Below, piece by piece: positions 1,586 through 28,589 of a stretch of DNA of 64,000 nt. Location of the stretch: sequence record OZ346189.1, one strand, 5' to 3'. Origin of the DNA: a phage. The notes beneath the pieces were generated by a model, which did not search any database, was not told the origin of the DNA, and was given only the letters and a program-made list of their open reading frames with translations. A program made the position numbers and the translations under genes. Every line of letters starts with the position of its first letter. Position 1 is the first letter of the stretch.

Positions 1586-2350
1586 TTGAAATTCATCTAC
1601 AAAGAACACTACCACAAAGGTGTTGTGTGGAGTCTATTTGACGGGTCTGGTGGTGCAGTTATTGACTGGGCAAAAGCTGGGTACCTGTGCCTGTGCTTTA
1701 ATGCAGAAGGTGCTGACCACGGCAGTTATGCAGAGGTGATAACCGATCATCCTAACATTCACTATGTGGATTATTGGATTGACCCATGGTTCCCTCAGGA
1801 AACTTTTTGCATGTATCCAGCTCCAGACTTTATTCTTGCATTTCCTCCGTGCACGCATTTAGCGGTATCAGGTGCTGCACATTTTAAGAAAAAGCTGGCT
1901 AAGGATCCTTTGATCCAAATTAATGCTGTAAAGGATGCTCGGGTTGCGGAAGAGTTGGGAGAGATTTACGATTGCCCGTGGCATGTAGAGAATCCTGTAG
2001 GGGTTATGTCCACACTGTGGCGAAAACCTGATTACCGTTTTCATCCTTCGGATTATGGTGGGTATTTACCGGAGGATGATGTAAACCCCTGGTTTCCTGA
2101 ATTTATAGCTCCACGTGATGCCTACCCAAAAATAACTTGCGGCTGGATAGGCAATGGATTTATAATCCCGGCCACAAAACCTGTCCCGCAAATAGTTGAC
2201 GCGGTTAGCGGGTATTCCATGCAACACGCCAAGCTGGGTGGAAAGAGTGCAAGAACGAAGATGATCCGAAGCCTCACGCCACGTGGCTGGGCAAAAGCCG
2301 TATTCTTAGCAAACGAGCCTGTAGTAAGGAGCAGAATTAATGGGAAGTAA
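1586..2350 (+). CDS. C5-cytosine DNA methyltransferase-like protein
   Basis: ORF track 1556-2350 but 5' end overlaps terminator; TTG 1586 with AGGAGA SD 1573-1578; motifs FDGSGG (motif I-like), PPCT..S.AG (PC motif, Q replaced by T) and VENPVG (ENV-like). Confidence 0.45.
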   Translation: MKFIYKEHYHKGVVWSLFDGSGGAVIDWAKAGYLCLCFNAEGADHGSYAEVITDHPNIHYVDYWIDPWFPQETFCMYPAPDFILAFPPCTHLAVSGAAHFKKKLAKDPLIQINAVKDARVAEELGEIYDCPWHVENPVGVMSTLWRKPDYRFHPSDYGGYLPEDDVNPWFPEFIAPRDAYPKITCGWIGNGFIIPATKPVPQIVDAVSGYSMQHAKLGGKSARTKMIRSLTPRGWAKAVFLANEPVVRSRINGK

Positions 2351-4418
2351 ATTTATGGCATCTGCATACAACCGTTTCGGTGAGCCAAACCCGAAAGCAA
2401 TTAAGTATAAAAGTGGGGGAAGTGTGAAACGAGACTATCGTGATGAAAAAGAGGTTGAAACTGTAGAGACTGTTTTAGAAAATACTAAAATCGTCCCTGT
2501 CCCACAACAAAATATCGGTCTGATGGCTGCACAATATTTTGGTGTGCGATCAGCATTGTCCCAAGAAGACGGTGTGACAGTCACTGCAACATATTTCCCA
2601 TATTACGACCGATACGGAAATCTGTCCGGTTTCAAAAAGCGTGACTGGACTATTCCTAAAGAACAAAGGGGCCACTTCTCCGTTGTTGGCATAGTAAAGG
2701 CCAACTCCCAGATGTTTGGTCAAAAGCTGTGTGCATCTTCCAACAACCGTAAGCAGATTAACGTTTGTGAGGGAGAAGGTGATGTTATTGCAGCATGGCA
2801 GGCTGCATATCAGATACAAGTAAAAGGGATTCTCACCAACGCTAAAGCCCCGGCAAAGGTGAAGCAGTGGGCTAAAGAGGTCCAGGACGGGATCGACGCA
2901 GTTATCAACGGTGGTGATCTGGCAGGAAAACCCTGCCTGCCTTTTGTTGGAATTAACTGTGGATGTGCAAACGCAGTAGATACTTTTGCAAACAATGAGA
3001 AGTTTATCCGTAGCTATGGAACAGTTGTGCTGGCAATGGATAACGATGCAGCTAACGAGGTAGAGAAGCAAAAACACGTCATTAAAGGTGTTGAGGCCAC
3101 GCACAATATCGCAGCATTTTTGATGGCTGATAACGTTTACCACGTAGAATACCCTGGTGAAGTAAATGACCCTGACGGGGTAAAAGATATCCGTGACATG
3201 CTGAAGGCTAAAAAGCTGGAAGATATTGTCAACATGTTCCGGCACCCTGTTAAATATGTGCCTGATGCTGTGTCGGATTTAGAAGACTTCTCTATCGAGT
3301 CTTTGCGGAAAAAGACTTCCAACGGGGTAGATATCAGCGCAGAGTTCCCAAAACTGCAAAAAATGCTAAAAGGCTTGCACAAAGGGACACTCGTAATGCT
3401 TACAGGGCCATCAGGGGGCGGTAAAACAACTGTAGCTAAAAAACTGGAACATTGTATTGCAAGATACCTAATGGACCCGACATGCCCGAAGGCTGATGAC
3501 TATGAAGAGGATGATCGTCTATGTATGATCCATCTTGAGGAGGACCCAGAGGAAGCAATTAACTCCTTGTATGCAAACCAGTTAGGGTTTGATGTTAAAG
3601 AGTTTGTTGAAGATCCTAGCCAGTTTTTAACTGATCAAGAACACGCAGAGATTCACCAATCATGGGCAAAAGCTGGAAAAATCAAAGTGTTCAAACATTT
3701 CGGATCTATTCCGGTGGACGAGTTGATTACCAAGCTTAAGCAAATGGTTTGCCTGTACCATTGCCGTTATATTGTGCTGGATCACCTATCCATGGTAATT
3801 TCAGGGCTTAATGTTAAGGATGAGCGAAAAGAACTGGACATGGCTATGACTCAGCTGGCTGCGTTTTGTAAGCAGTTTAACGTGTTTATCTTGGTGATCG
3901 CTCACCTCAAACGTACAGAGATTGTGCCTCCTAAGGACAAGGATGGTAACCCGTTACCTTTCTGGTATCCTGTGCGAAAAGAGAATTTGCGAGGATCGGC
4001 GGGGCTTGAACAGTTGAGTTGGGTAGTCATAGGTGTCGAGGCCGAAGAAATGGTGGATCGTTCTCGTGGACGTGTCCGTCTGGTAGGTCTTAAAAACCGT
4101 CCAGCAAAAACTCTAGGTATTGCTGACACTTTGGTTATGGACCCGCACACAGGTAAGTTCCATGATGCCAGTAATTGGTACTGGGACAAAGAAATGCAAA
4201 TGTTTACAGACGGAGAAGGTGGGGAGGTTGTTTGGAGACCTCAGGCTATGTTTGAGGATCAGGAGCATGCAGTTGTAGAAACACCTATGGGCAAGGTTGT
4301 GGCTGATAAGGTTGTAACTCCTACTGTTAAGCCTGTTGACACGCAGGAAGACCTCCAGTACGATGATCCATCCTCTGACCCGGTCCCTGGTTTTGAGGAT
4401 GATGAAACGCCTTTTTAA
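2340..4418 (+). CDS. bifunctional primase-helicase (toprim primase + DnaB-family helicase)
   Basis: 692 aa; toprim-like VCEGEGDVIAAW, Walker A GPSGGGKTT, RecA/DnaB-like C-terminal domain; acidic C-terminal tail ...GFEDDETPF. Confidence 0.8.
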   Translation: MGSKFMASAYNRFGEPNPKAIKYKSGGSVKRDYRDEKEVETVETVLENTKIVPVPQQNIGLMAAQYFGVRSALSQEDGVTVTATYFPYYDRYGNLSGFKKRDWTIPKEQRGHFSVVGIVKANSQMFGQKLCASSNNRKQINVCEGEGDVIAAWQAAYQIQVKGILTNAKAPAKVKQWAKEVQDGIDAVINGGDLAGKPCLPFVGINCGCANAVDTFANNEKFIRSYGTVVLAMDNDAANEVEKQKHVIKGVEATHNIAAFLMADNVYHVEYPGEVNDPDGVKDIRDMLKAKKLEDIVNMFRHPVKYVPDAVSDLEDFSIESLRKKTSNGVDISAEFPKLQKMLKGLHKGTLVMLTGPSGGGKTTVAKKLEHCIARYLMDPTCPKADDYEEDDRLCMIHLEEDPEEAINSLYANQLGFDVKEFVEDPSQFLTDQEHAEIHQSWAKAGKIKVFKHFGSIPVDELITKLKQMVCLYHCRYIVLDHLSMVISGLNVKDERKELDMAMTQLAAFCKQFNVFILVIAHLKRTEIVPPKDKDGNPLPFWYPVRKENLRGSAGLEQLSWVVIGVEAEEMVDRSRGRVRLVGLKNRPAKTLGIADTLVMDPHTGKFHDASNWYWDKEMQMFTDGEGGEVVWRPQAMFEDQEHAVVETPMGKVVADKVVTPTVKPVDTQEDLQYDDPSSDPVPGFEDDETPF

Positions 4419-4480: not shown

Positions 4481-7400
4481 ATGAGTATGTGGAATTTTGA
4501 CTTTGAGGCCTCAGGTCTTCTGGACGAGGAAGATCTTTACTACCATTGTGGCCTGTTTAAAGAGTTGAATAAAAATAATTTTATGTTGTTTTTGCCTATC
4601 AATGATAGATCTCATTACAGTGAAGAGGAGGTTGAAAAAGCAAAACAATTTATGCTGGCAAAGCAAGATATCTATCCTAGCTGCTCTGTCCGTATTGCGG
4701 ATTTCAGCCAGCTTGAATGGTGGTTAACCGGGAACTCCGATTGGTCACCCACATCATTAAGTTGTCACAACTGTTTTAGTTATGACTTTATCTTGATGGA
4801 GAAGCTGTCTGGTATTCATTTTGATATGTTCCGTGATCCCAAGTGTATGGGGACAATCAATAATCATCAGGTGAACCTGTTCGACACTCTGCCAATGAGT
4901 CGTATACTATGGCCCGACAGACCGTTACCTAAAGGATGCCCTGATTCTGTATACAATCCTGTTACAAAACGTATGCAGCAGGTAGGTCCTCATGGCCTAA
5001 TGGCGTGGGGGTACGCTTTAGGAAACCAGAAGGTTAAAATTGATGACTGGAGAAATTTACCTCTGTGGAAGTATGTTGATCGTGTATTCGAGGACGTTAT
5101 CATCCAGGAGCTGCTCTGGAAAGAGCTGGTAGCGGAATCAAAAGGTGTATTCTACGGCAAATCTGACATGCAGAACTTTATGTACGATCCAGCCAAAGAG
5201 AAGCCGAAAGGGTTCAAGAAGATTACCTGGAAGAATGCATTACGCCGAGGCATGCTGCAGCACTTCCTGATGGAGCTGCAGGCCCGTCAGGGTGTATACT
5301 TCGACATAGATGGAGCTATTGCTTTACGTGACCGTTGCGATGCGTGGATGAAAGAAATCGCTGATCGTGTTGAACCACAACTACCTTTAAAAGAGCTGTC
5401 AATGTCTCAGCGGCCCAAGTTCCCTGAAAAGCCGTTTAACCAAGACGGGACAATCTCTAATAATGGTTGGAAATGGTTAAAAGATAAGCTTGGCTATCCT
5501 GTAGACATGAGTGCTTTAGAGTTCAAAGCCCCGCCTAAGCGAGCATTTACCTCTACAGGAGATGTCAGCAAGATGGGGATAAAATGGTGTGAAGAGATGG
5601 GCTGCAAAGACCCCGATAAGATGGCTGATTTCTTGAGAGGCTATATTAAGGGCACCTCCACACCACAACCCTTACCTAAAGAGCTGATGGATCAGGCAAT
5701 AAGTGATCTGCAGCAGAAGCGAATGCCTGACTGCAAGATACCTATGAAAATCAGCAATCAGGACGACATCAAGCGATACCTAATCAGTGCTGGTTGGCTC
5801 CCAACAATGTGGAGAACTAAAGATGTAACTAAAGACAGCAAGAAGAAAGCTTTACCTGATGCAGATGTTGATGCACGAGTATATGCATATATGGACGAGC
5901 TTTTGGAGTCAGAGTATTGTGACCTAATTATCAACTTCTGGAACAAAACTGATGCTAAGTTCCAGACAACCGTGCACAAGTTCCGAAGCTTTCCTAACTC
6001 CGAAAGGATTAAAAAGGAAGTATTCGGGAAAATACGTAGAAAAGCCAGGGCACTTATTACTTCTCCGCAACTGAAAGATACGTTTGGACACCTATGCCCA
6101 AATCTTGAAAAATTGAACGGAGAGATGGCTAAAGATATCGTCTTGTGGTTATCATTGCGAAACCGCAGATCGGTCCTTGATCCAATCAAGGAGGATAAGG
6201 TTGATACTGGTCTTCTTAATCACCCACGTTTGAAGATTGACCATAAGCTTCCTGCTAAAAGCTCTGGATTAACAAACACTTCCAGACAGAAACACAGTAT
6301 TTGTGCAAACATGCCTAAACCATCTCCTAAAGTGGTTATGGGTAAAGAGATGCGTAGTCTGTGGGGTGTTCCTCCGGGATACTTTGAGATCGGTATTGAC
6401 GGGTCCAACTTAGAGCAGCTTATCGGGGCTTGGGGTGCCTTTGAGTTCGACAACGGCCTGTATTATGATGTTGTAAGTAATGGCGATGCACACTGTTATT
6501 CAGGAGATACACAAATTCTCACGGAGAAAGGGTGGGTGAGGTTTGAAGATCTTGATCCGGGAACACAAGTGTTCCAGTACGATCACAACACCTCGTCAAT
6601 GAACCTTGTTACTCCATTAAATTACGTTAAGCGTAGTTATTGTGGGGATATGTATCATTTCCACAACAGTAGTGTGGATTTTATGGTTACAGATCAACAC
6701 AGGATGCTGACTGTGGATCACAGAAGCAATAAATTGTTTGAAGATTTGGCAAAAGACCTGAAAGCAGGTAAAGGGTCTAATTCAGGAAGAAGGTTTATCC
6801 ATGCGGCAGAGTTTTATGGGAATACAACCTTATCTCCTGCCCAGGTTAATTTGCTTATTGCTATTCACGATGATGGGCACTTGCATACAAATAAGGACGG
6901 CAGCATCGTGTGCAGGATTCAGGTCGGAAAGGGAAGAAAAGTTGCAACGCTTTTAGATACTTTTTCTGCTCTAAGCCTTAGTTATGTAGAGCAGAGCGGG
7001 AAAACCACAAAAGGGGGCTTACTGGCGAGAAGGTTCCAATTCCACGTTCCGTCCTGGGTATTTGAGTTTTTGGACAACAATAAGGATTTCACCTATAACC
7101 TGATGAACCTTGATAAAGAATCTAAAAACCTGTTTATAGCTTCTTTATCTAACTGGGACGGGTGGGTATCTTCCGAAGGTGGAAAGGTTGCTTACTACTC
7201 CCAGGCCGAGTGCAGGAAGAAATCTGTAGAGGTGGTGTCTGCGCTGGCTACTCAGTGTGGTTTACGGAATAATACGGTGGCGATTCACAAAAAAGGTCGT
7301 GCCGTGCAGCACAGAATCACAATTGGTAGCAAACAGAGAGCAGGGTTGCTGACACTATCTAAAGAGTCTGTCGAGGTGAGCGGTTCTTTGGTTTATTGCG

Positions 7401-7879
7401 TTACCGTCCCTTCTGGAGCAATCATTGTGAGAAGGAATGGTAAAGTGGCAGTGTGCGGTAACTGTAATAACGCCAAAGCTTACTCTTCTGTAGCAGGCAA
7501 GGAGATTTCCCGTAACGATGGTAAACCTATCACGTATGGGGTTATGTATGGGGCACAAAAAGATAAAGTTGCAGATATGCTGGACATCTCCCCAGAGTTG
7601 GGACAAAGGGTAATCGATGCACTCTGGGATGCCAACCCAGGTCTTAAGGGGCGCAAAGAGGATCTGGAGAAATTCTGGGAAGCAACAGGTAAGAAGTTTA
7701 TCTACTCTTTTGATGGTCATGCTATCTGGACCCGATCTAAACACTCTTTACTTAATGCATACCAACAAAATGGCGGTGCATCGTTGTGTGACTTAGTTGG
7801 AATACTCATGCACCACCAGATGGTGAAGCGTGGGTGGTACGATGAAGGTGTTCGTCGTATTATTTATTACCATAAATAA
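4481..7879 (+). CDS. DNA polymerase, family A (Pol I/T7 gp5-like), N-terminal and catalytic part; contains an intein; interrupted before C-terminus
   Basis: SD AAGGAGAA; motif A IDGSNLEQL, Pol I-like DAH segment, motif B SRNDGKPITYGVMYG, Q..G.A.D segment QQNGGASLCD and HDE-like WYDE near end; stop TAA 7877-7879. Confidence 0.85.
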   Translation: MSMWNFDFEASGLLDEEDLYYHCGLFKELNKNNFMLFLPINDRSHYSEEEVEKAKQFMLAKQDIYPSCSVRIADFSQLEWWLTGNSDWSPTSLSCHNCFSYDFILMEKLSGIHFDMFRDPKCMGTINNHQVNLFDTLPMSRILWPDRPLPKGCPDSVYNPVTKRMQQVGPHGLMAWGYALGNQKVKIDDWRNLPLWKYVDRVFEDVIIQELLWKELVAESKGVFYGKSDMQNFMYDPAKEKPKGFKKITWKNALRRGMLQHFLMELQARQGVYFDIDGAIALRDRCDAWMKEIADRVEPQLPLKELSMSQRPKFPEKPFNQDGTISNNGWKWLKDKLGYPVDMSALEFKAPPKRAFTSTGDVSKMGIKWCEEMGCKDPDKMADFLRGYIKGTSTPQPLPKELMDQAISDLQQKRMPDCKIPMKISNQDDIKRYLISAGWLPTMWRTKDVTKDSKKKALPDADVDARVYAYMDELLESEYCDLIINFWNKTDAKFQTTVHKFRSFPNSERIKKEVFGKIRRKARALITSPQLKDTFGHLCPNLEKLNGEMAKDIVLWLSLRNRRSVLDPIKEDKVDTGLLNHPRLKIDHKLPAKSSGLTNTSRQKHSICANMPKPSPKVVMGKEMRSLWGVPPGYFEIGIDGSNLEQLIGAWGAFEFDNGLYYDVVSNGDAHCYSGDTQILTEKGWVRFEDLDPGTQVFQYDHNTSSMNLVTPLNYVKRSYCGDMYHFHNSSVDFMVTDQHRMLTVDHRSNKLFEDLAKDLKAGKGSNSGRRFIHAAEFYGNTTLSPAQVNLLIAIHDDGHLHTNKDGSIVCRIQVGKGRKVATLLDTFSALSLSYVEQSGKTTKGGLLARRFQFHVPSWVFEFLDNNKDFTYNLMNLDKESKNLFIASLSNWDGWVSSEGGKVAYYSQAECRKKSVEVVSALATQCGLRNNTVAIHKKGRAVQHRITIGSKQRAGLLTLSKESVEVSGSLVYCVTVPSGAIIVRRNGKVAVCGNCNNAKAYSSVAGKEISRNDGKPITYGVMYGAQKDKVADMLDISPELGQRVIDALWDANPGLKGRKEDLEKFWEATGKKFIYSFDGHAIWTRSKHSLLNAYQQNGGASLCDLVGILMHHQMVKRGWYDEGVRRIIYYHK
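6494..7462 (+). mobile_element. intein with LAGLIDADG-type homing endonuclease domain inside DNA polymerase
   Basis: 323 in-frame codons between Pol motifs A and B; starts CYSGDTQIL (block A), TDQH (block B), LLIAIHDDGH and LFIASLSNWDGW (LAGLIDADG-like), ends ...LVYCVTV...VAVCGN followed by Cys +1. Confidence 0.7.
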
Positions 7880-11316: not shown

Positions 11317-11685
11317 ATGGAACAAATGAACGATCAAGAGTCGGTTGCGATGAACGAGCAAGAACAACCTCAAGAATTTTTCTTAGGGTTAAGTAAAGAT
11401 CAAGTGTCTCTTTTGCTAGTGCTTTCTTCTTTCATGGGAAGACTTCAGGAGCTCACACAACAACCGGAGGCTGAACAATTATTTCAGGCTCTGCGTGAAG
11501 AAGAAAAATATCGTCGTTTGGACTATGCCTTAGGTTGGGTAGCTCAACAACGAGATATGCTGATGGCCCTCTCTGGGACCACAAGTTTTGCAATGGGCCT
11601 GTTGGCTCAAGTTCAGGACAAATTAATTCAAGCAGGGTTTGCACACACGGCAAACACTAACGAAGAACAAGGAGACAAAGAATGA
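11317..11685 (+). CDS. hypothetical protein
   Basis: 122 aa; Gln/Glu-rich N-terminus. Confidence 0.5.
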   Translation: MEQMNDQESVAMNEQEQPQEFFLGLSKDQVSLLLVLSSFMGRLQELTQQPEAEQLFQALREEEKYRRLDYALGWVAQQRDMLMALSGTTSFAMGLLAQVQDKLIQAGFAHTANTNEEQGDKE

Positions 11686-12908
11686 GCGTTATTCAACAAT
11701 TCGCTAACCCGATGAATCCGCGTGAAACTGTTTTACTGGCTCACGGCATGATTAAACGCGTCAGCATCAAGCCTATCAAAGGTGCTGATCCTACAACAGG
11801 TATTAAAACCACTGTGTGGCAAGGTAAGAAAATTGAATCCAGCCACACCATCTCTTTACTGATTTCTGAACTGGATTCCTCTGATAACCTACTTCAAGGT
11901 GGTGAAGAAGTTTGGATCAGTATGGGCGATAAGCTGCTTAAACCGGGTCATCAAGACTCTGTCTCTGTTAAAATTGATGACAAGTGGGAAACCGTAACGC
12001 CAGGATGGATCGTAAATATCCCTTTGAAGGCAAACGAGCATAACGGTAAGACCTACTACAAAGGCTCACTGGCTAAGATGGTTAAGCTGGGTGCAGGAGA
12101 GGCTCCAGCAGCGACTCAGCAGCAAAAACAGCAACAAGGTGCACAATCACAAGGCCAGAAGCAGAAACCTCAGCAGAATGCCAATCAGGACGTTTTACGC
12201 ATCTATGGTGATGTGACTCAGATTGTTGGCAACGTGGTTACTGTAAATGACCACAAGATTGGCGAAGGTGCTATGGTTGTAACTGATGAGCAGCTTAAAG
12301 ACCTGGTGGTAGGTGGTCGTGTTGCAGCCATTGTTGACAAAGACACTGGAAACATTATCAGTGGTTTCAAGGCCTATCCTCCTAAGGCAGAGAACGGCAC
12401 TCAAGGCTCCGGTGGCAAGCGTAAATCCTCTTACGACCCTATCGGTGTGGAAACGGGGCATAGCATCAATGCGTTGCAGATCATCCTGGATCGCGGGTTT
12501 AAGGTAGACGACCCACTGGGCGTGGCTAAAACACTGCACGTAGTCACCATTGAGCTTAAGAAAGAGTATGCTCAAGCCACCAACCGAACTGAAGATGAAG
12601 TAGGTGCCAGTGTCGGTAATGCGGTGTTGAACGCTTGTCGCCGTATTGACAAGAAAACGAAAGTTGATGATTTTGCAGCGGCAATTACTGCAGAAGCAAA
12701 AGATGTCTTGACTAATCTGGCTGAGCCGTTGTACGATTGGATCAAGAACGGTGCTGGGTCAACTGACCATCAAGAACCTCAGGCTGCCAAACAGGAAGCA
12801 GCTCCACAGCAAAACACTGTAGACGCTCCTCCTGTAAATGATGGGGAAGATGACCCGATGGATCAGAATCCAGCACAGTACGCCTTTGATGATGACATCC
12901 CTTTTTAA
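11682..12908 (+). CDS. SSB-like protein with acidic C-terminal tip
   Basis: 408 aa; Gln-rich linker (ATQQQKQQQGAQSQGQKQKPQQ) and C-terminus ...AFDDDIPF, identical in form to the SSB tip motif DDDIPF; AGGAGA SD. Confidence 0.45.
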   Translation: MSVIQQFANPMNPRETVLLAHGMIKRVSIKPIKGADPTTGIKTTVWQGKKIESSHTISLLISELDSSDNLLQGGEEVWISMGDKLLKPGHQDSVSVKIDDKWETVTPGWIVNIPLKANEHNGKTYYKGSLAKMVKLGAGEAPAATQQQKQQQGAQSQGQKQKPQQNANQDVLRIYGDVTQIVGNVVTVNDHKIGEGAMVVTDEQLKDLVVGGRVAAIVDKDTGNIISGFKAYPPKAENGTQGSGGKRKSSYDPIGVETGHSINALQIILDRGFKVDDPLGVAKTLHVVTIELKKEYAQATNRTEDEVGASVGNAVLNACRRIDKKTKVDDFAAAITAEAKDVLTNLAEPLYDWIKNGAGSTDHQEPQAAKQEAAPQQNTVDAPPVNDGEDDPMDQNPAQYAFDDDIPF

Positions 12909-15329: not shown

Positions 15330-15662
15330 ATGGTAACATTAGAAAGACGTAAAGCTATCGCCGCCACACTGGCAGACATCTTTTGGGATTGCAACTTAAA
15401 AGATACCAGAAATTGTGGCGCATCTGTAGATGTATTATTCCCACGGCCCACCATTGTTGCAATGGGAAACCTGTTAAACGTAGTGTACGGAGCATGGGAC
15501 AAAGAAGGTGGATTCTATATCTGGCAACCTGACTACAGAGCCTGGAAAGAGGTAAGGGGTGCGGTTGACTTTGGGCCTGCAAGTGCTAAGATGGATGGCT
15601 GGGAAATTTATGTTGGAAACGACATGAAGCTGAAAGGCGAGATTGTTTACTGGTTACCTTAA
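15330..15662 (+). CDS. hypothetical protein
   Basis: 110 aa; weak SD. Confidence 0.45.
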   Translation: MVTLERRKAIAATLADIFWDCNLKDTRNCGASVDVLFPRPTIVAMGNLLNVVYGAWDKEGGFYIWQPDYRAWKEVRGAVDFGPASAKMDGWEIYVGNDMKLKGEIVYWLP

Positions 15663-15682
15663 GAGAATGCAGGAGATAAAGT

Positions 15683-15928
15683 ATGAACAAAGGGTGGACA
15701 TTTGTAGACGGCGTTGAAAACATGCCTCTAGGAAAGTATATTGTAGCCATGGCAGATGAGAATGGCAAGGTTGATTTCGGAGCTTGCGAGGTTGTTCTTG
15801 CAGGATCTGGTGACTATGCTCACAAAACTGGGATAATTAACGGTCATTTCTACTTTGATTACAACCCTGTTGTGGCGTATATGGCTATGCCAGAGTTCGA
15901 GCTCCCAAAGGAGGGTGCGGATGTTTAA
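15683..15928 (+). CDS. hypothetical protein
   Basis: 81 aa; CAGGAGA SD. Confidence 0.5.
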   Translation: MNKGWTFVDGVENMPLGKYIVAMADENGKVDFGACEVVLAGSGDYAHKTGIINGHFYFDYNPVVAYMAMPEFELPKEGADV

Positions 15929-16118
15929 GCTTAAATCTGCATGGAACATCGCTGTGGGGGACGAGATCCGCATCCCAGGTGGAAAGACCATTATGAAGAT
16001 ATCTCGTATCGAGTACGAAGGTGATCGTGTATTTCATATCTTTGCAGAAGATGGTCGAGAAATTTATATACAGGCAGGCTCTCACATCTATATTCGTAAG
16101 AAAGGGGACGACAAATGA
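15921..16118 (+). CDS. hypothetical protein
   Basis: ORF track 15855-16118; ATG 15921 after AAGGAGGG; coupled to upstream stop. Confidence 0.45.
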   Translation: MFKLKSAWNIAVGDEIRIPGGKTIMKISRIEYEGDRVFHIFAEDGREIYIQAGSHIYIRKKGDDK

Positions 16119-16444
16119 CAGAGATCATCATTTCAACTGCAGGGTATGTGTTCCTGACAATCATTGCACTGACCATTTTGGTGGTGGTATATGGAATTGT
16201 TATTCTCCCTATTCTTGAGACAATTAGTTTGTGTCGGTGTTGGAGAAAGGCTTACGGTCCACAGCCGTGGAAGGACTGGCCCCACCTGGTGCACATAGCG
16301 TTCTCTTATGCTTATGATCACGCCAGCAGTGCATGCATAACCGGGTATCACGCCCACAACTGGAGCTGGGAAGGGTTGAGGAAATGGAATGTTACAAAGA
16401 CCATACCTCTGCGCATGTACAAACCTAAAAACAAAGACAGCTGA
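16115..16444 (+). CDS. membrane protein
   Basis: 109 aa; N-terminal transmembrane segment YVFLTIIALTILVVVYGIVILPIL; last gene before the non-coding repeat region. Confidence 0.5.
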   Translation: MTEIIISTAGYVFLTIIALTILVVVYGIVILPILETISLCRCWRKAYGPQPWKDWPHLVHIAFSYAYDHASSACITGYHAHNWSWEGLRKWNVTKTIPLRMYKPKNKDS

Positions 16445-16519
16445 TACTTGAAAATCCCTGGCATATCAAGTGTAAGGAGGATTTCTAAAATGGATTTCCT
16501 CCTTTTGATATTTCACCGG

Positions 16520-17040
16520 GCCAGATATTTTAAAATTCTTAGAAAATCAGAAAATGGATCGAAAACTAAAATGGATTTTTCAAGACAGGCACGATAAGAT
16601 GTGCTGCTCATTCTATCGTTCGCACCGTACTTTAAGTCACTATTCCAGATTTTTCCGCACATACTCTCACCCTTCTACCAGAACTTTCCCAGCTTACCTC
16701 TGACCTTTTATAACAATAAGTCCATTATTATCAGAAAGTTTCGGCACATCTCTTTCGGTACTCGATCTGTTTTTCATTTCAAAGACCTGATTTTCTGAAA
16801 ATTTTTCTCGATAAATTTCTTAGTACTCGATCTGTTTTTCGTTTTCTGAATCGGATTTTCTGGAAATCGTTCCAGCCCTCGACCTGAAATTTTTGGGGAC
16901 GAAATCGATTTTTCGTTTTCAGAAATGGATTTTTAAAATTTCTATATGGGAATATTTTATGGGATACTGTTTTATAGGAAATTGTTACGGAGGGTAATTA
17001 GCATGCTAATTAAATTTATTAAATGCGAGGAGTTCTCATT
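16520..17040. repeat. AT-rich non-coding region with direct repeats and an 18-bp perfect palindrome
   Basis: GTACTCGATCTGTTTTTC at 16758-16775 and 16823-16840, related CTCGACCTGAAATTTTT at about 16876; repeated AAAATGGAT; palindrome TAATTAGCATGCTAATTA 16995-17012. Confidence 0.5.
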
Positions 17041-17049
17041 TAGAATTTT

Positions 17050-17066
17050 GAATGATAATCATTCTC
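17050..17066 (+). promoter_or_regulatory. Fur-box-like site 1
   Basis: GAATGATAATCATTCTC; 15/16 match to the 3' part of the Fur box consensus GATAATGATAATCATTATC. Confidence 0.35.
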
Positions 17067-17080
17067 GTTTGCAGAATAAC

Positions 17081-17104
17081 GGGCAGGCCCGGTGATTGTC
17101 TCCC
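17081..17104 (+). repeat. conserved motif copy 1 (GGGCAGGCCCGGTGATTGTCTCCC)
   Basis: 22/23 identical to the reverse complement of 26869-26891; diverged copy at 17221-17240. Confidence 0.5.
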
Positions 17105-17180
17105 GGCCCCTGTTGCCCCGGCTTGTTATTATAGTATCACACAGGACAAAGAAAGCAAGGATTTTTTGCATAAATTTTTA

Positions 17181-17202
17181 AATGATAATGATAACCGTTC
17201 TC
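17181..17202 (+). promoter_or_regulatory. Fur-box-like site 2
   Basis: AATGATAATGATAACCGTTCTC; core GATAATGATAACCGTTCTC is 16/19 to Fur box consensus. Confidence 0.35.
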
Positions 17203-17721
17203 ATTTTATGCAGCGCCCATCCCCGGTGGTTGTCTCCCCCGTCACCGGTGCCTGCCGTCCTTTCGATAGGTATATTGTGCCACCTGGCGGGGCCGCTGTC
17301 AACACTTCTTCAAAAATTTTTTCTAACATAATGCACCAACCGCTGCAACCTGGCGGGGCCAGCCTGGCAGGACCTGACTGACCAGGTAGGAGAGAGTGAA
17401 AACTTGCAAACCTGGTAGGCCTATGCTACAGGGCAGGTAACAATTGAAGAGGAGGTACAAAAATGAAAAGTAATATAATCCCCTGGAAAATGTAGCGATC
17501 AACGCCGCTGAAGTTATCACCCTGGTTGAAAAGGCTATGGCGGGAGCGTTGGAACATAAAGAAGAGTACGAAAAATGATGGTTAACCTGGCAGGGGCGGC
17601 GGCTGGAGAATTCTTCCCAAAAAATAATTCTAACTAATGGTTGACAGCTCGGAGAGTTCTGTTATTCTTATCCTCGCAAGGTGAACAACACCACACTAAT
17701 TAACAGAGAGGATAAAAAATC

Positions 17722-17919
17722 ATGAACGCCTACGGAATTAAAGTACGTCGCAACACTCACCAGGCCGTCACCGATCAAATGGTTTGCCAGGTGGACGTAA
17801 CCATCAACAACGGGCAAGGCCTTTATAAATTCCGTCGCGGTCAGAGCTATACCCGGCAACAGCTTAATCGTTGCGCCCTGACAAAAGGCCAGATCAACCA
17901 CTGGTTTAATAAAAAATAA
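17722..17919 (+). CDS. hypothetical basic protein
   Basis: 65 aa; AGAGAGGA SD; first gene after the non-coding locus. Confidence 0.5.
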   Translation: MNAYGIKVRRNTHQAVTDQMVCQVDVTINNGQGLYKFRRGQSYTRQQLNRCALTKGQINHWFNKK

Positions 17920-17922
17920 GTA

Positions 17923-17951
17923 TTGACATATAGTCTGACACCAAATACACT
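17923..17951 (+). promoter_or_regulatory. sigma70-like promoter
   Basis: TTGACA 17923-17928, 17-nt spacer, TACACT 17946-17951. Confidence 0.4.
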
Positions 17952-17983
17952 AAAAGCACAAAAGACACTAAGAGGATAAAATC

Positions 17984-18382
17984 ATGAAAACCACTACCTT
18001 TAATTTTGATAATGCGGACTTTTCTTTTTCTGATGTCAAGAACTGCCGCCGGGATCGTGGATTTTACAAGGCTTATAATCTGGTGGGCCTGGACGATGAC
18101 AATAATTTGCACGAAGTAGCTGAGATCCGGTATTATGCCGCCGCCAGCGGGAACACTCAATACTGCGTTTTTTGGATTCACGACAACAAGAACAATAAGT
18201 ACGGTTATACTGGCGGGAAGGCGAGCGGTCACGGTTACGATAAAGCTAATGCAGCACTTGAGAGCGCATTAAATGCTATGGGGATCACTGCCAACGGCTG
18301 GATCTATGAAGAAGAGTTTTTGTCGGCACTTGCTGACCACCTGGGCTATAAAAAGCACATTGTAACATGCGCCCACGAATAA
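17984..18382 (+). CDS. hypothetical protein
   Basis: 132 aa; AAGAGGA SD. Confidence 0.55.
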   Translation: MKTTTFNFDNADFSFSDVKNCRRDRGFYKAYNLVGLDDDNNLHEVAEIRYYAAASGNTQYCVFWIHDNKNNKYGYTGGKASGHGYDKANAALESALNAMGITANGWIYEEEFLSALADHLGYKKHIVTCAHE

Positions 18383-18388
18383 AAATTG

Positions 18389-18416
18389 TTGACACGCTGC
18401 AAAATTCAAGTAAACT
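18389..18416 (+). promoter_or_regulatory. sigma70-like promoter
   Basis: TTGACA 18389-18394, 16-nt spacer, TAAACT 18411-18416; followed by leader hairpin 18427-18445. Confidence 0.5.
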
Positions 18417-18464
18417 AGTCACAAAAGGCGGGAATGTTTCCCGCCAACACAAAGGAAAAAGATC

Positions 18465-18869
18465 ATGAATAAGAACGTACGCCGCATCATGAACGAACTG
18501 GCAAACGATGAAAAAATTATTGACATGCATTTGATCAACATTTGCCGCCGTTGTGTAACATATAACAACCGCGCCGCAAAAGCGCGTGAGATGAACGCAA
18601 AAGGCACCTTAAAGCCATTCCAGGTGGTGGTAAAGGCCATTAAAGATGTAGCTAATACGGCAAACCAGGTACAGGGGAACACCAACGAGAGTACCAATAT
18701 TGATCCGGCTTACATCATGAAACGGATCCGGACCTGCAAGAACAAAGAGCAAGTGTATAATGTCATAGACTGGTTGGATTCTATGGGCGATGTGGTGTAC
18801 AATAGATTCTCGGCAGCTATTGAGATCCAGCTTGACAGGTTAGACGGTAAAGTACTTAAAACTTACTAA
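18465..18869 (+). CDS. hypothetical protein
   Basis: 134 aa; AAAGGAAAAAG SD. Confidence 0.55.
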   Translation: MNKNVRRIMNELANDEKIIDMHLINICRRCVTYNNRAAKAREMNAKGTLKPFQVVVKAIKDVANTANQVQGNTNESTNIDPAYIMKRIRTCKNKEQVYNVIDWLDSMGDVVYNRFSAAIEIQLDRLDGKVLKTY

Positions 18870-28203: not shown

Positions 28204-28589
28204 GTCTGCTCTTCCTCCTACCACAAACGGCCCAGCCTGGCAAGTGGAATAATTGACTAGCCATCAATCCCACACACTGTACAAATATACATGGAAAATA
28301 ACTATTGCATAATTTTTCATTGTGTGGTAGCAGGTCCATTTTTACCCGTTTTCTCTCTCAAAATTGCACGTAATGCCGCTATTGCACAAAATTTAACCTG
28401 ATGCACATCTTCAATATCTTGTCAACAACTAAAAATCTTTATAAGTCATACACTTACACACTCACAAAAGCGTGTTCTACGTGAAAAATCGAGTATAACT
28501 ATAGCCGCCAGATCTCAGAATTTACAAAGGCCATCATTAAAGCTTCAGTAAAATCAGTCATTCCTCACCTCTTGTTAGTCACTATACTA

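Follow-up and report, generated by a model that had tools for sequence, protein, structure and literature searches.

Iteron-type theta origins are known from lambda ori, with its O-protein iterons and AT-rich tract, and from P1 oriR, F oriS, RK2 oriV and pPS10. Promoter-dependent origins are represented by the primary origin of T7, which comprises the phi1.1A/B promoters and an AT-rich region, and by oriF and oriG of T4, in which a middle promoter is combined with an unwinding element and replication is R-loop primed. Curved DNA and activator sites are also known upstream of very strong promoters, with the UP element and Fis sites of rrnB P1 and the curved DNA before SPO1 and phi29 promoters as examples. 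For ICP1, a virulent myovirus of Vibrio, the published study describes an early bidirectional theta origin in the middle of the genome and a later origin near the genome end, both mapped by coverage (PMC7145576). Here, a stretch of 64,000 nt (sequence record OZ346189.1; the window) from a Vequintavirus, an rV5-like E. coli myovirus with a genome of ~137 kb, was analyzed with respect to a gap of ~1 kb at 16445-17460 which is devoid of conserved reading frames.

The interval ~16505-17080 within this gap appears to form one DNA module that acts in cis and is most likely the origin of replication of the rV5-like phage, and a probability of roughly 0.5 is given to this reading. The module would combine the origin type with iterons and an unwinding element (lambda, plasmids) with the promoter-adjacent type (T7, T4), and it differs from both types in a distal block at fixed spacing and in its coupling to Fur boxes. 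Cocktails for therapy and biocontrol make wide use of the rV5-like phages (Vequintavirinae), whose replication origin is still unmapped; neither origin mapping nor a transcriptome for this phage group was found in the literature searched.

Organization of the module

The gap runs from the gene at 16115-16444 to the next series of small plus-strand genes. Its parts follow each other in a fixed order: a terminator hairpin, a block of GATATT motifs and A-tracts, a variable spacer of ~170 bp, three direct repeats (iterons), an AT-rich tract, an 18-bp palindrome and a promoter-like site overlapped by a Fur box.

16463-16511, plus strand: intrinsic terminator of the upstream plus-strand operon, a hairpin with a U-rich tail, one arm of which is AAGGAGG
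16505-16582: left block, two GATATT motifs (16507 and 16524) followed by the short A-tract repeats GAAAATCA, GAAAATGGATC, GAAAACTA and AAATGGATTTTTC
16583-16754: variable spacer, free to vary in sequence and kept in length
16755-16822, plus strand: iteron 1, with the core GTACTCGATCTGTTTTTC, T-tracts and the palindrome ATTTTCTGAAAAT
16823-16896, plus strand: iteron 2, with an 18-nt core identical to that of iteron 1
16897-16950, plus strand: iteron 3, with the degenerate core GACGAAATCGATTTTTC
16928-16990: AT-rich tract of low stability, candidate unwinding element, with about three 15-bp units (TTTTATrGGAwA)
16995-17012: 18-bp palindrome TAATTAGCATGCTAATTA, unique in the window (0.04 expected), with a weak fold
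17048-17077, plus strand: promoter-like site TTGAAT-N18-CAGAAT, directed away from the iterons and overlapped by a Fur-box-like 19-mer (17048-17066; 15/19 to the consensus)
17078-17302: remainder of the Fur-box locus, with two GGTGrTTGTCTCC GC-rich elements, a second Fur box and a minus-strand promoter-like site
17302-17274, minus strand: this promoter-like site, TTGACA-17-CACAAT

The iterons are 57-77 bp long, start at 16755, 16823 and 16897, and each combine a core of the CTCGATC type with a TTTTTC tract, another T-tract and, at the end, a palindrome of T-tract and A-tract. The core GTACTCGATCTGTTTTTC occurs exactly at 16758 and 16823, whereas no other site with fewer than three mismatches is present in the 64 kb and 0.05 are expected by chance. 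With a repeat finder, three in-register copies of a 47-nt core were obtained at 16748, 16813 and 16887 with spacings of 65 and 74 bp, the third copy being 74% identical. Moreover, units of the AAAATGGATTT type are located at 16487, 16568, 16902 (minus strand) and 16922, i.e., four of the seven matches in the window lie within 450 bp. Inside the left block, the 3′ half of the iteron profile was matched in part.

A previous interpretation made from the letters of the window alone (the sequence-only reading) had proposed two exact direct repeats, a third degenerate copy and the repeated short units in this region, all of which were recovered. It had described about 500 bp without a convincing open reading frame (ORF); the region is indeed non-coding, but the gap is about twice as long. 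The palindrome, to which it had drawn attention, is present and unique, but a functional role is not supported: it is perfect in just six of the 13 Vequintavirus genomes first aligned, and in the remaining genomes one change without compensation (17003 A>G or 17010 T>C) breaks its symmetry, which makes it the least supported part of that reading. The leftward extension of the element (16505-16582) and the architectural coupling to the Fur-box locus had been overlooked.

Several physical properties of the DNA coincide with the repeats. Only two 60-mers in the 64 kb are less stable than the segment 16928-16987, directly beside iteron 3, and the program TRF reported a period of 15 in this tract, with a short 15-bp tandem at 16955-16986. 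Iteron 3 itself overlaps a long imperfect hairpin (16889-16926, z = −5.2). In 16740-17040, the AAA/TTT tracts recur in phase every 11.0 bp, with a power that exceeds that of all other segments among the 214 of 300 bp compared, and this phasing suggests intrinsic curvature of the DNA. The terminator hairpin is located directly 3′ of the stop codon of the gene at 16115-16444, and its RNA fold has −19.9 kcal/mol (z = −3.4). The sequence TCGATAAATT at 16806-16815, between iterons 1 and 2, agrees with the high-affinity nucleation motif of H-NS (tCG[t/a]T[a/t]AATT), as a single match and hence only a candidate site.

Conservation within Vequintavirus

For the analysis of conservation, 15 Vequintavirus genomes (the phage studied here and 14 others) were aligned. 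Identities are given as the mean of all pairs.

3′ part of the upstream gene: 0.84
Terminator hairpin: 0.91
Left block: 0.93, with 0.99 for 16544-16568
Spacer, 16583-16754: 0.78, the lowest value in the gap
Iteron stretch 16792-16870: 0.97, with 69/79 columns invariant
Iteron 3: 0.96
Three whole iterons: 0.90-0.96
Fur-box promoter: 0.996, with 29/30 columns invariant
17078-17291: 0.96
Downstream coding sequence: 0.76

Thus, the repeats (0.96-0.97 for iteron 3 and 16792-16870) are more constrained than the neighbouring genes (0.84 and 0.76), while the DNA between them drifts (0.78). This pattern points to purifying selection on the DNA of the module and not on a protein. Around TCGATAAATT, the stretch 16792-16816 reaches an identity of 0.994 in the 13 genomes first aligned.

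Public annotations of the gap conflict with each other and range from zero to seven tiny coding sequences (CDSs) in differing frames and strands. In the alignment, each ORF in the gap apart from 16490-16597 and 17171-17040 (minus strand) was affected by a frameshift, a stop or a lost start in 4 to 14 of the 14 other genomes, depending on the ORF. Frameshifts or stops break the ORF 16601-16798 in every one of the 14, and the window carries a private 1-nt insertion; this ORF and the antisense ORF, which had been considered unconvincing before, are open in the window and neither is conserved as a reading frame. The ORF 16893-16997, corresponding to bas54_0101 of the related phage Bas54, has a TTG start without a Shine-Dalgarno sequence, a premature stop in 4/15 and a lost start in 2/15 genomes. 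ORF 16946-17095 is stop-interrupted in eight genomes, and ORF 17052-17381 (bas54_0102-type) is frameshifted in 9/15. The minus-strand ORF 17171-17040 is open in 15/15 genomes, but nearly all differences in it alter the amino acid. Finally, neither of the repeat spacings (65 and 74 bp) is a multiple of three.

A separate observation concerns the 35-aa ORF 16490-16597 (plus strand), which is preceded by AAGGAGG 8 nt before its ATG and stays open over at least 31 codons in 15/15 genomes. Its Shine-Dalgarno sequence is one arm of the terminator hairpin, its C-terminus shifts via 1-nt indels, and the differences within it are all non-synonymous. The ORF probably does not represent a gene.

The same architecture in other genera

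With sensitive blastn, only the Fur-box promoter and the GC element (~17010-17167) could be aligned in other genera. The homologous gaps of the phages PVP-SE1 (Salmonella), BIS47 (Klebsiella), Hena1 (Erwinia), Kashira (Serratia), POP15 (Pectobacterium) and PBES02 (Cronobacter) were read directly, and the same order of GATATT/A-tract block, spacer, three iterons and Fur-box promoter was found in Seunavirus, Mydovirus, Henunavirus, Certrevirus (two phages) and the Serratia phage Kashira. The iterons of these genera are 65-78 bp long with the core G[TA][AT]CTCGATCG..TTTTTC and the direct-repeat consensus GtaCTCGATCGgtTTTTCaa.tTC.aaAtcG.AtTTt...GAAAAA.TTTT; downstream of them, between one and three Fur boxes occur together with the promoter already described, the sequence of which hardly varies among the seven genera. 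In all seven, 232-251 bp separate the last GATATT from the core of the first iteron, although the intervening sequence is unrelated.

A hidden Markov model (HMM) was built across genera from 12 iteron units of four other genera, with no sequence from the window. In the 64 kb it matched at 16823 (E = 1.6e-6), 16904 (E = 0.011) and 16758 (E = 0.12), and nowhere else. The two-copy iteron pattern was present in just four IMG/VR contigs, at least two of which are of vequintavirus-like size (137-149 kb), and a loose scan of IMG/VR for the iteron core yielded only single matches as expected by chance. The same layout with its own repeats, two of 72 nt and a partial third, was found in Phapecoctavirus anhysbys, a member of a different subfamily, where the repeats are followed by several Fur-box-like repeats (up to four) 29 bp apart. 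Repeats of its own fit iterons, since iterons are expected to be lineage-specific.

Insertion tolerance in the relative Bas54

HIDEN-SEQ, a saturating Himar1 mutagenesis, has been run on Bas54 (phage MaxBurger) (preprint 10.1101/2025.11.20.689424). Bas54 is ~89% identical to the window in the module, and three hypothetical ORFs annotated there on the module were placed on window coordinates by alignment. The TA sites hit by insertions were as follows:

bas54_0099, upstream gene: 18/21 in the reference library (non-essential), 13/21 in the first library (intermediate)
bas54_0100, window 16741-16887, iterons 1 and 2: 1/3 in the reference library, 0/3 in the first library
bas54_0101, window 16893-16997, iteron 3 and AT-rich tract, TA sites at 16934-16995: 0/11 and 'Essential' in both libraries
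bas54_0102, window 17052-17326, Fur-box locus: 5/15 in the reference library ('Strong fitness defect'), 2/15 in the first library ('Essential')
bas54_0103, downstream: 12/14 in the reference library, 7/14 in the first library
bas54_0104 to bas54_0109, downstream: 91-100% in the reference library; 50-100% in the first library, five of the six non-essential and bas54_0107 (3/6) intermediate

Mean reads in the competitive-fitness (resampling) data were 0 for bas54_0101, 5 for bas54_0100 and 13 for bas54_0102, compared to 140-840 for most of the dispensable neighbour genes (10.1101/2025.11.20.689424). By our own arithmetic, the chance of 0/11 is below 1e-9, given that at least 86% of the TA sites were hit in the neighbours. 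The authors of the study discuss only another insertion-free gap (bas54_0134/0135) and are silent on the module (10.1101/2025.11.20.689424).

The module is thus required for propagation in Bas54, with cis and trans effects not formally separated by the insertion data. Since the frame of bas54_0101 is not conserved, the simplest view is that this 'essentiality' resides in the DNA or in an RNA transcribed from it. An insertion-intolerant island among dispensable genes in a close relative argues that an essential element, acting in cis or as an RNA, is the proper kind of explanation. To that extent the proposal of the sequence-only reading, an origin or master regulatory region, was borne out. 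Its suggested roles of host DnaA and of the palindrome were not supported: DnaA boxes (TTATCCACA) with at most one mismatch are absent from 16400-17500, where three sites with two mismatches were found.

The module as a probable replication origin

An origin fits the observations best because oriented repeats, curved DNA, a block at fixed distance, an adjoining tract of low stability, a promoter, repeats that are lineage-specific in a sister subfamily, and insertion intolerance among dispensable genes are combined. Protein binding and strand opening are inferred here, and so is initiation of replication as the essential function. In the proposed mechanism, a sequence-specific protein, encoded either by the phage and slow to evolve or by the host and common to the Enterobacterales, would bind the three composite iterons, each of which has a near-palindromic CTCGATC(G) core and phased T/A tracts. 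The bound iterons, together with the left block ~240 bp away, would bend or wrap the DNA into a higher-order complex. The resulting strain and the negative supercoiling behind RNA polymerase leaving the rightward promoter would then open the AT-rich tract at 16928-16990; alternatively, the promoter may provide a G-rich primer or an R-loop transcript. Finally, the T7-type primase-helicase and the family-A DNA polymerase would load at the opened tract.

A number of points weigh against this function. No cognate initiator was found among the neighbouring essential proteins and the adjacent gene of the other genera, and DnaA boxes are lacking as described above. The repeat units of 57-77 bp far exceed classical iterons of 17-22 bp, and T7- and T4-type origins need no iterons at all. 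The iteron sequence is kept across very different hosts, so a host factor or a slowly evolving protein of the replisome could read the iterons. In PVP-SE1, the stretch between iteron 3 and the promoter is not AT-rich. The insertion data say that the DNA is needed, not for what, and they come from a relative with ~89% identity instead of the source phage. Furthermore, the terminal gap of Bas54 (92786-95297), which is non-coding, insertion-free and AT-rich and contains TGTAAACA-type and inverted repeats, could be the origin instead of, or besides, the module.

The composition of the flanking genes is a further point of this kind. GC skew was measured at four-fold degenerate third positions of the plus-strand genes in 1-28200, left of 16.5 kb and right of 17.5 kb, the gene strand being unchanged. 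It amounts to +0.12 on the left (6/7 bins) and −0.13 on the right (6/6 bins; chi-square p = 1e-4). The locus is a compositional boundary, and the sign of the change is opposite to that at a bacterial bidirectional origin and as expected at a terminus. The change could reflect different gene classes on either side. For rV5, the skew analysis in the genome paper showed transcription-linked changes only (PMC3606486).

Three proteins were considered as initiator. The first is an essential neighbour of 408 aa (11682-12908, plus strand; phrog_4477, function unknown), which ends with ...YAFDDDIPF, the motif at the C-terminal tip of the single-stranded DNA-binding protein (SSB) of E. coli. Distant homologues of 275-308 aa likewise end with DDDIPF, and the orthologue bas54_0087 is Essential with 8/57 TA sites hit. 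The protein was rejected as initiator because of this SSB-type tail and is probably the unannotated single-stranded DNA-binding protein of the phage. An essential downstream protein of 117 aa was rejected since it occurs in a single genus and matches nothing in PDB or Pfam. The ~280-aa gene adjoining the module in other genera (phrog_12959/12463, function unknown) has no homologue in the window.

The Fur-box locus and a candidate small RNA

The Fur boxes are putative sites, scored as sequence matches to the 19-bp Fur consensus. The box at 17184-17202 agrees at 16/19 positions and is the sole match with at most three mismatches in the 64 kb (0.04 expected). In seven genera the locus shows at least one Fur-consensus box on the invariant TTGAAT-N18-CAGAAT, followed by the GGTGaTTGTCTC element, and minus-strand promoter-like sites (TTGACA/TTGCAA-17-TATAnT) are conserved as well. 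In the genera other than Vequintavirus, a plus-strand hairpin which needs G-U pairs and is followed by a U-rich tail was observed ~210 nt downstream of the promoter. The locus is a candidate for encoding a Fur-controlled phage small RNA (sRNA).

The motif ACCTGGCRGGG was additionally noticed at 17282, 17348, 17585 and 24476 (plus strand), four times compared to 1.2 expected, with three copies within 300 bp right of the Fur-box locus; one copy is the spacer of the minus-strand promoter-like site.

As the main alternative to an origin, the iterons, the phased A/T tracts and the left block might form a curved, factor-bound upstream control region which drives or gates the Fur-box promoter, the essential product being an RNA from the Fur-box locus, a Fur-controlled sRNA. 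The module immediately precedes (about −40 to −540) the promoter-like site that is best conserved in this part of the genome, with 29/30 columns invariant and kept in seven genera. Curved DNA upstream of promoters typically shows strong phasing of tracts at 11 bp, as here, and the hairpin with its U-rich tail in other genera suggests a discrete RNA. The strong fitness defect or essentiality of bas54_0102 is in line with this. However, insertions are less tolerated upstream (0/11 twice) than in the putative RNA (5/15 and 2/15), and the reverse would be expected if the upstream DNA served that RNA only. Covariation does not support a structured RNA: RNAalifold on both strands of the Fur-box locus gave covariation terms of just −0.14 and −0.32 kcal/mol, the locus of the window folds no better than shuffled sequence (z = −0.38), and a search of 15500-18500 against Rfam gave nothing near the gathering threshold (best E = 2). 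A tRNA scan of the region found none. An upstream region of 300-500 bp with fixed long-range spacing would also be unusual for a sigma-70 promoter. Taken together, such a control region is possible but rather unlikely.

Genome ends and other cis-acting sites

The related phages EdH4 and HdK5 have terminal redundancies of 458 bp (PMC6563267). The left end of EdH4 maps to ~94289 of MaxBurger, ~11 kb from the module and inside the other insertion-free gap (92786-95297). A packaging site or genome terminus at the module was therefore rejected, because the physical ends map elsewhere.

A different cis-acting site, such as an accessory site for packaging or concatemer processing, a centromere for anchoring or partition, or a polar fork barrier or terminus, is improbable. 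Arrays of protein-binding repeats with palindromic sub-sites do mark centromeres and pac sites, the sign change of the four-fold GC skew is as expected at a terminus, and insertions are not tolerated. On the other hand, the ends of EdH4 lie ~11 kb away, a partition site would be of no obvious use to a virulent phage, and fork barriers are normally not essential. GATC is neither enriched at the module nor conserved in the iterons of Hena1, and a methylation-gated pac-like site is unlikely for the latter reason.

With respect to the second insertion-free gap, it was observed that similarity to MaxBurger and EdH4 ends abruptly at position 28525 of the window. The ~2.1 kb at 93151-95297 of Bas54, the rest of that gap, is not found next to 28525 in the window, nor is the sequence up to 95700, and the window matches other places in MaxBurger and EdH4 from 28526 onward. 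The junction 28525/28526 may stem from a deletion or rearrangement, or from the assembly.

Possible reading of the module by host proteins, and small proteins as an explanation

The iterons and Fur boxes are kept across phages of Escherichia, Salmonella, Klebsiella, Serratia, Erwinia, Pectobacterium and Cronobacter, as they would be if conserved host proteins bound them. The module might then be an origin read by host proteins conserved in Enterobacterales instead of a phage initiator, with Fur at the origin-proximal promoter gating replication by iron status; if so, it would be an iron-sensing replication origin in a virulent phage. This extension of the origin reading is decidedly improbable.

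That small proteins (the bas54_0100-, bas54_0101- or bas54_0102-type ORFs or the 35-aa ORF 16490-16597) explain the insertion intolerance is hardly credible, since the ORFs called by several annotators, despite the AAGGAGG before one ATG and the minus-strand frame open throughout, differ in frame and strand and show the broken frames, amino acid changes, repeat spacings and hairpin overlap described above.

Genomic context

In 16300-17500, the window matches 122 phage records, the best being vB_EcoM-ECP32 with 94%, and an origin is annotated at the gap in none of the matching records listed. Every gene from 1 to ~28.2 kb is carried by the plus strand, and the small genes right of the gap each have their own TTGACA-type promoter. 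The genes of the primase-helicase and the DNA polymerase sit 8.5 kb upstream of the module.

1556-2350: DNA methyltransferase gene, upstream of the module
2340-4418: T7-type primase-helicase, upstream of the module
4481-7879, plus strand: family-A DNA polymerase, upstream of the module

The polymerase ORF encodes 1132 aa here and 925 aa in Bas54, and residues ~664-1000 match Hint/intein-type and intein-bearing PHROG profiles, which suggests insertion of an intein in the polymerase of the source phage. Genes for HNH or other homing endonucleases are located shortly upstream of the module (tens of bp to ~1 kb) in PVP-SE1, Hena1 and anhysbys, with the following coordinates within the retrieved loci:

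PVP-SE1, 1393-1980: homing-endonuclease gene
Hena1, 1426-1992: homing-endonuclease gene
anhysbys, 210-1418: homing-endonuclease gene

A whole vequintavirus genome (CP057073.1; 137,565 bp) has been deposited as pRHB39-C03_2, a 'plasmid' described as circular and non-mobilizable, from an E. coli isolate of cattle; a carrier state or a contamination could explain this. Its PLSDB gene table, which is described as incomplete, lists no CDS within the module.

Significance and comparison with known systems

As a candidate origin the module is compact, with a few hundred bp, and the same module is found across the subfamily and in phapecoctaviruses. It would account for a hypothetical gene that was scored as essential, and passed over without comment, when essentiality was first mapped along the whole genome of such a phage. 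For phage engineering, it marks where payloads should not go, and it is a candidate cis element for phage-dependent replicons. Since conserved Fur boxes are physically coupled to the module, replication of the phage, or an essential RNA that it makes, may be tied to the iron status of the host.

With iteron-type theta origins the module shares direct repeats in the same orientation, bent DNA as suggested by the tract phasing, an AT-rich region of low stability that adjoins them in the window as a candidate unwinding element, a presumed essential role in cis, and repeats that differ between lineages. It differs from them in its composite units of 57-77 bp instead of 17-22 bp, in having three copies only, and in the lack of both an adjoining or overlapping initiator gene and DnaA boxes. 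An iteron sequence kept across seven host genera is also unusual for iterons that co-evolve with their initiator. Nucleotide similarity to plasmid origins was not found, the sole match in the plasmid collection being the vequintavirus genome deposited as a 'plasmid'.

The T7-like replisome with a fused primase-helicase and a family-A polymerase, as well as the conserved promoter beside an AT-rich tract, resemble T7 and T4, and the initially transcribed sequence of the module is G-rich and could form an R-loop. In contrast to the origins of these phages, the promoter of the module is directed away from the AT-rich tract and carries host Fur boxes, iterons are present, and the locus is not dispensable, whereas T7 and T4 origins are individually dispensable. 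Phased A/T tracts and repeated putative protein-binding sites upstream of a conserved sigma-70-type promoter are shared with upstream activator regions; unlike these, the module reaches ~540 bp upstream, has a fixed spacing of 232-251 bp to its distal block, and tolerates fewer insertions than the transcribed region downstream.

Like the source phage, ICP1 is a large virulent myovirus whose polymerase and helicase-primase belong to the T7 families (PMC7145576). Its two origins parallel the two insertion-free non-coding gaps of Bas54, with no sequence relationship between ICP1 and the module.

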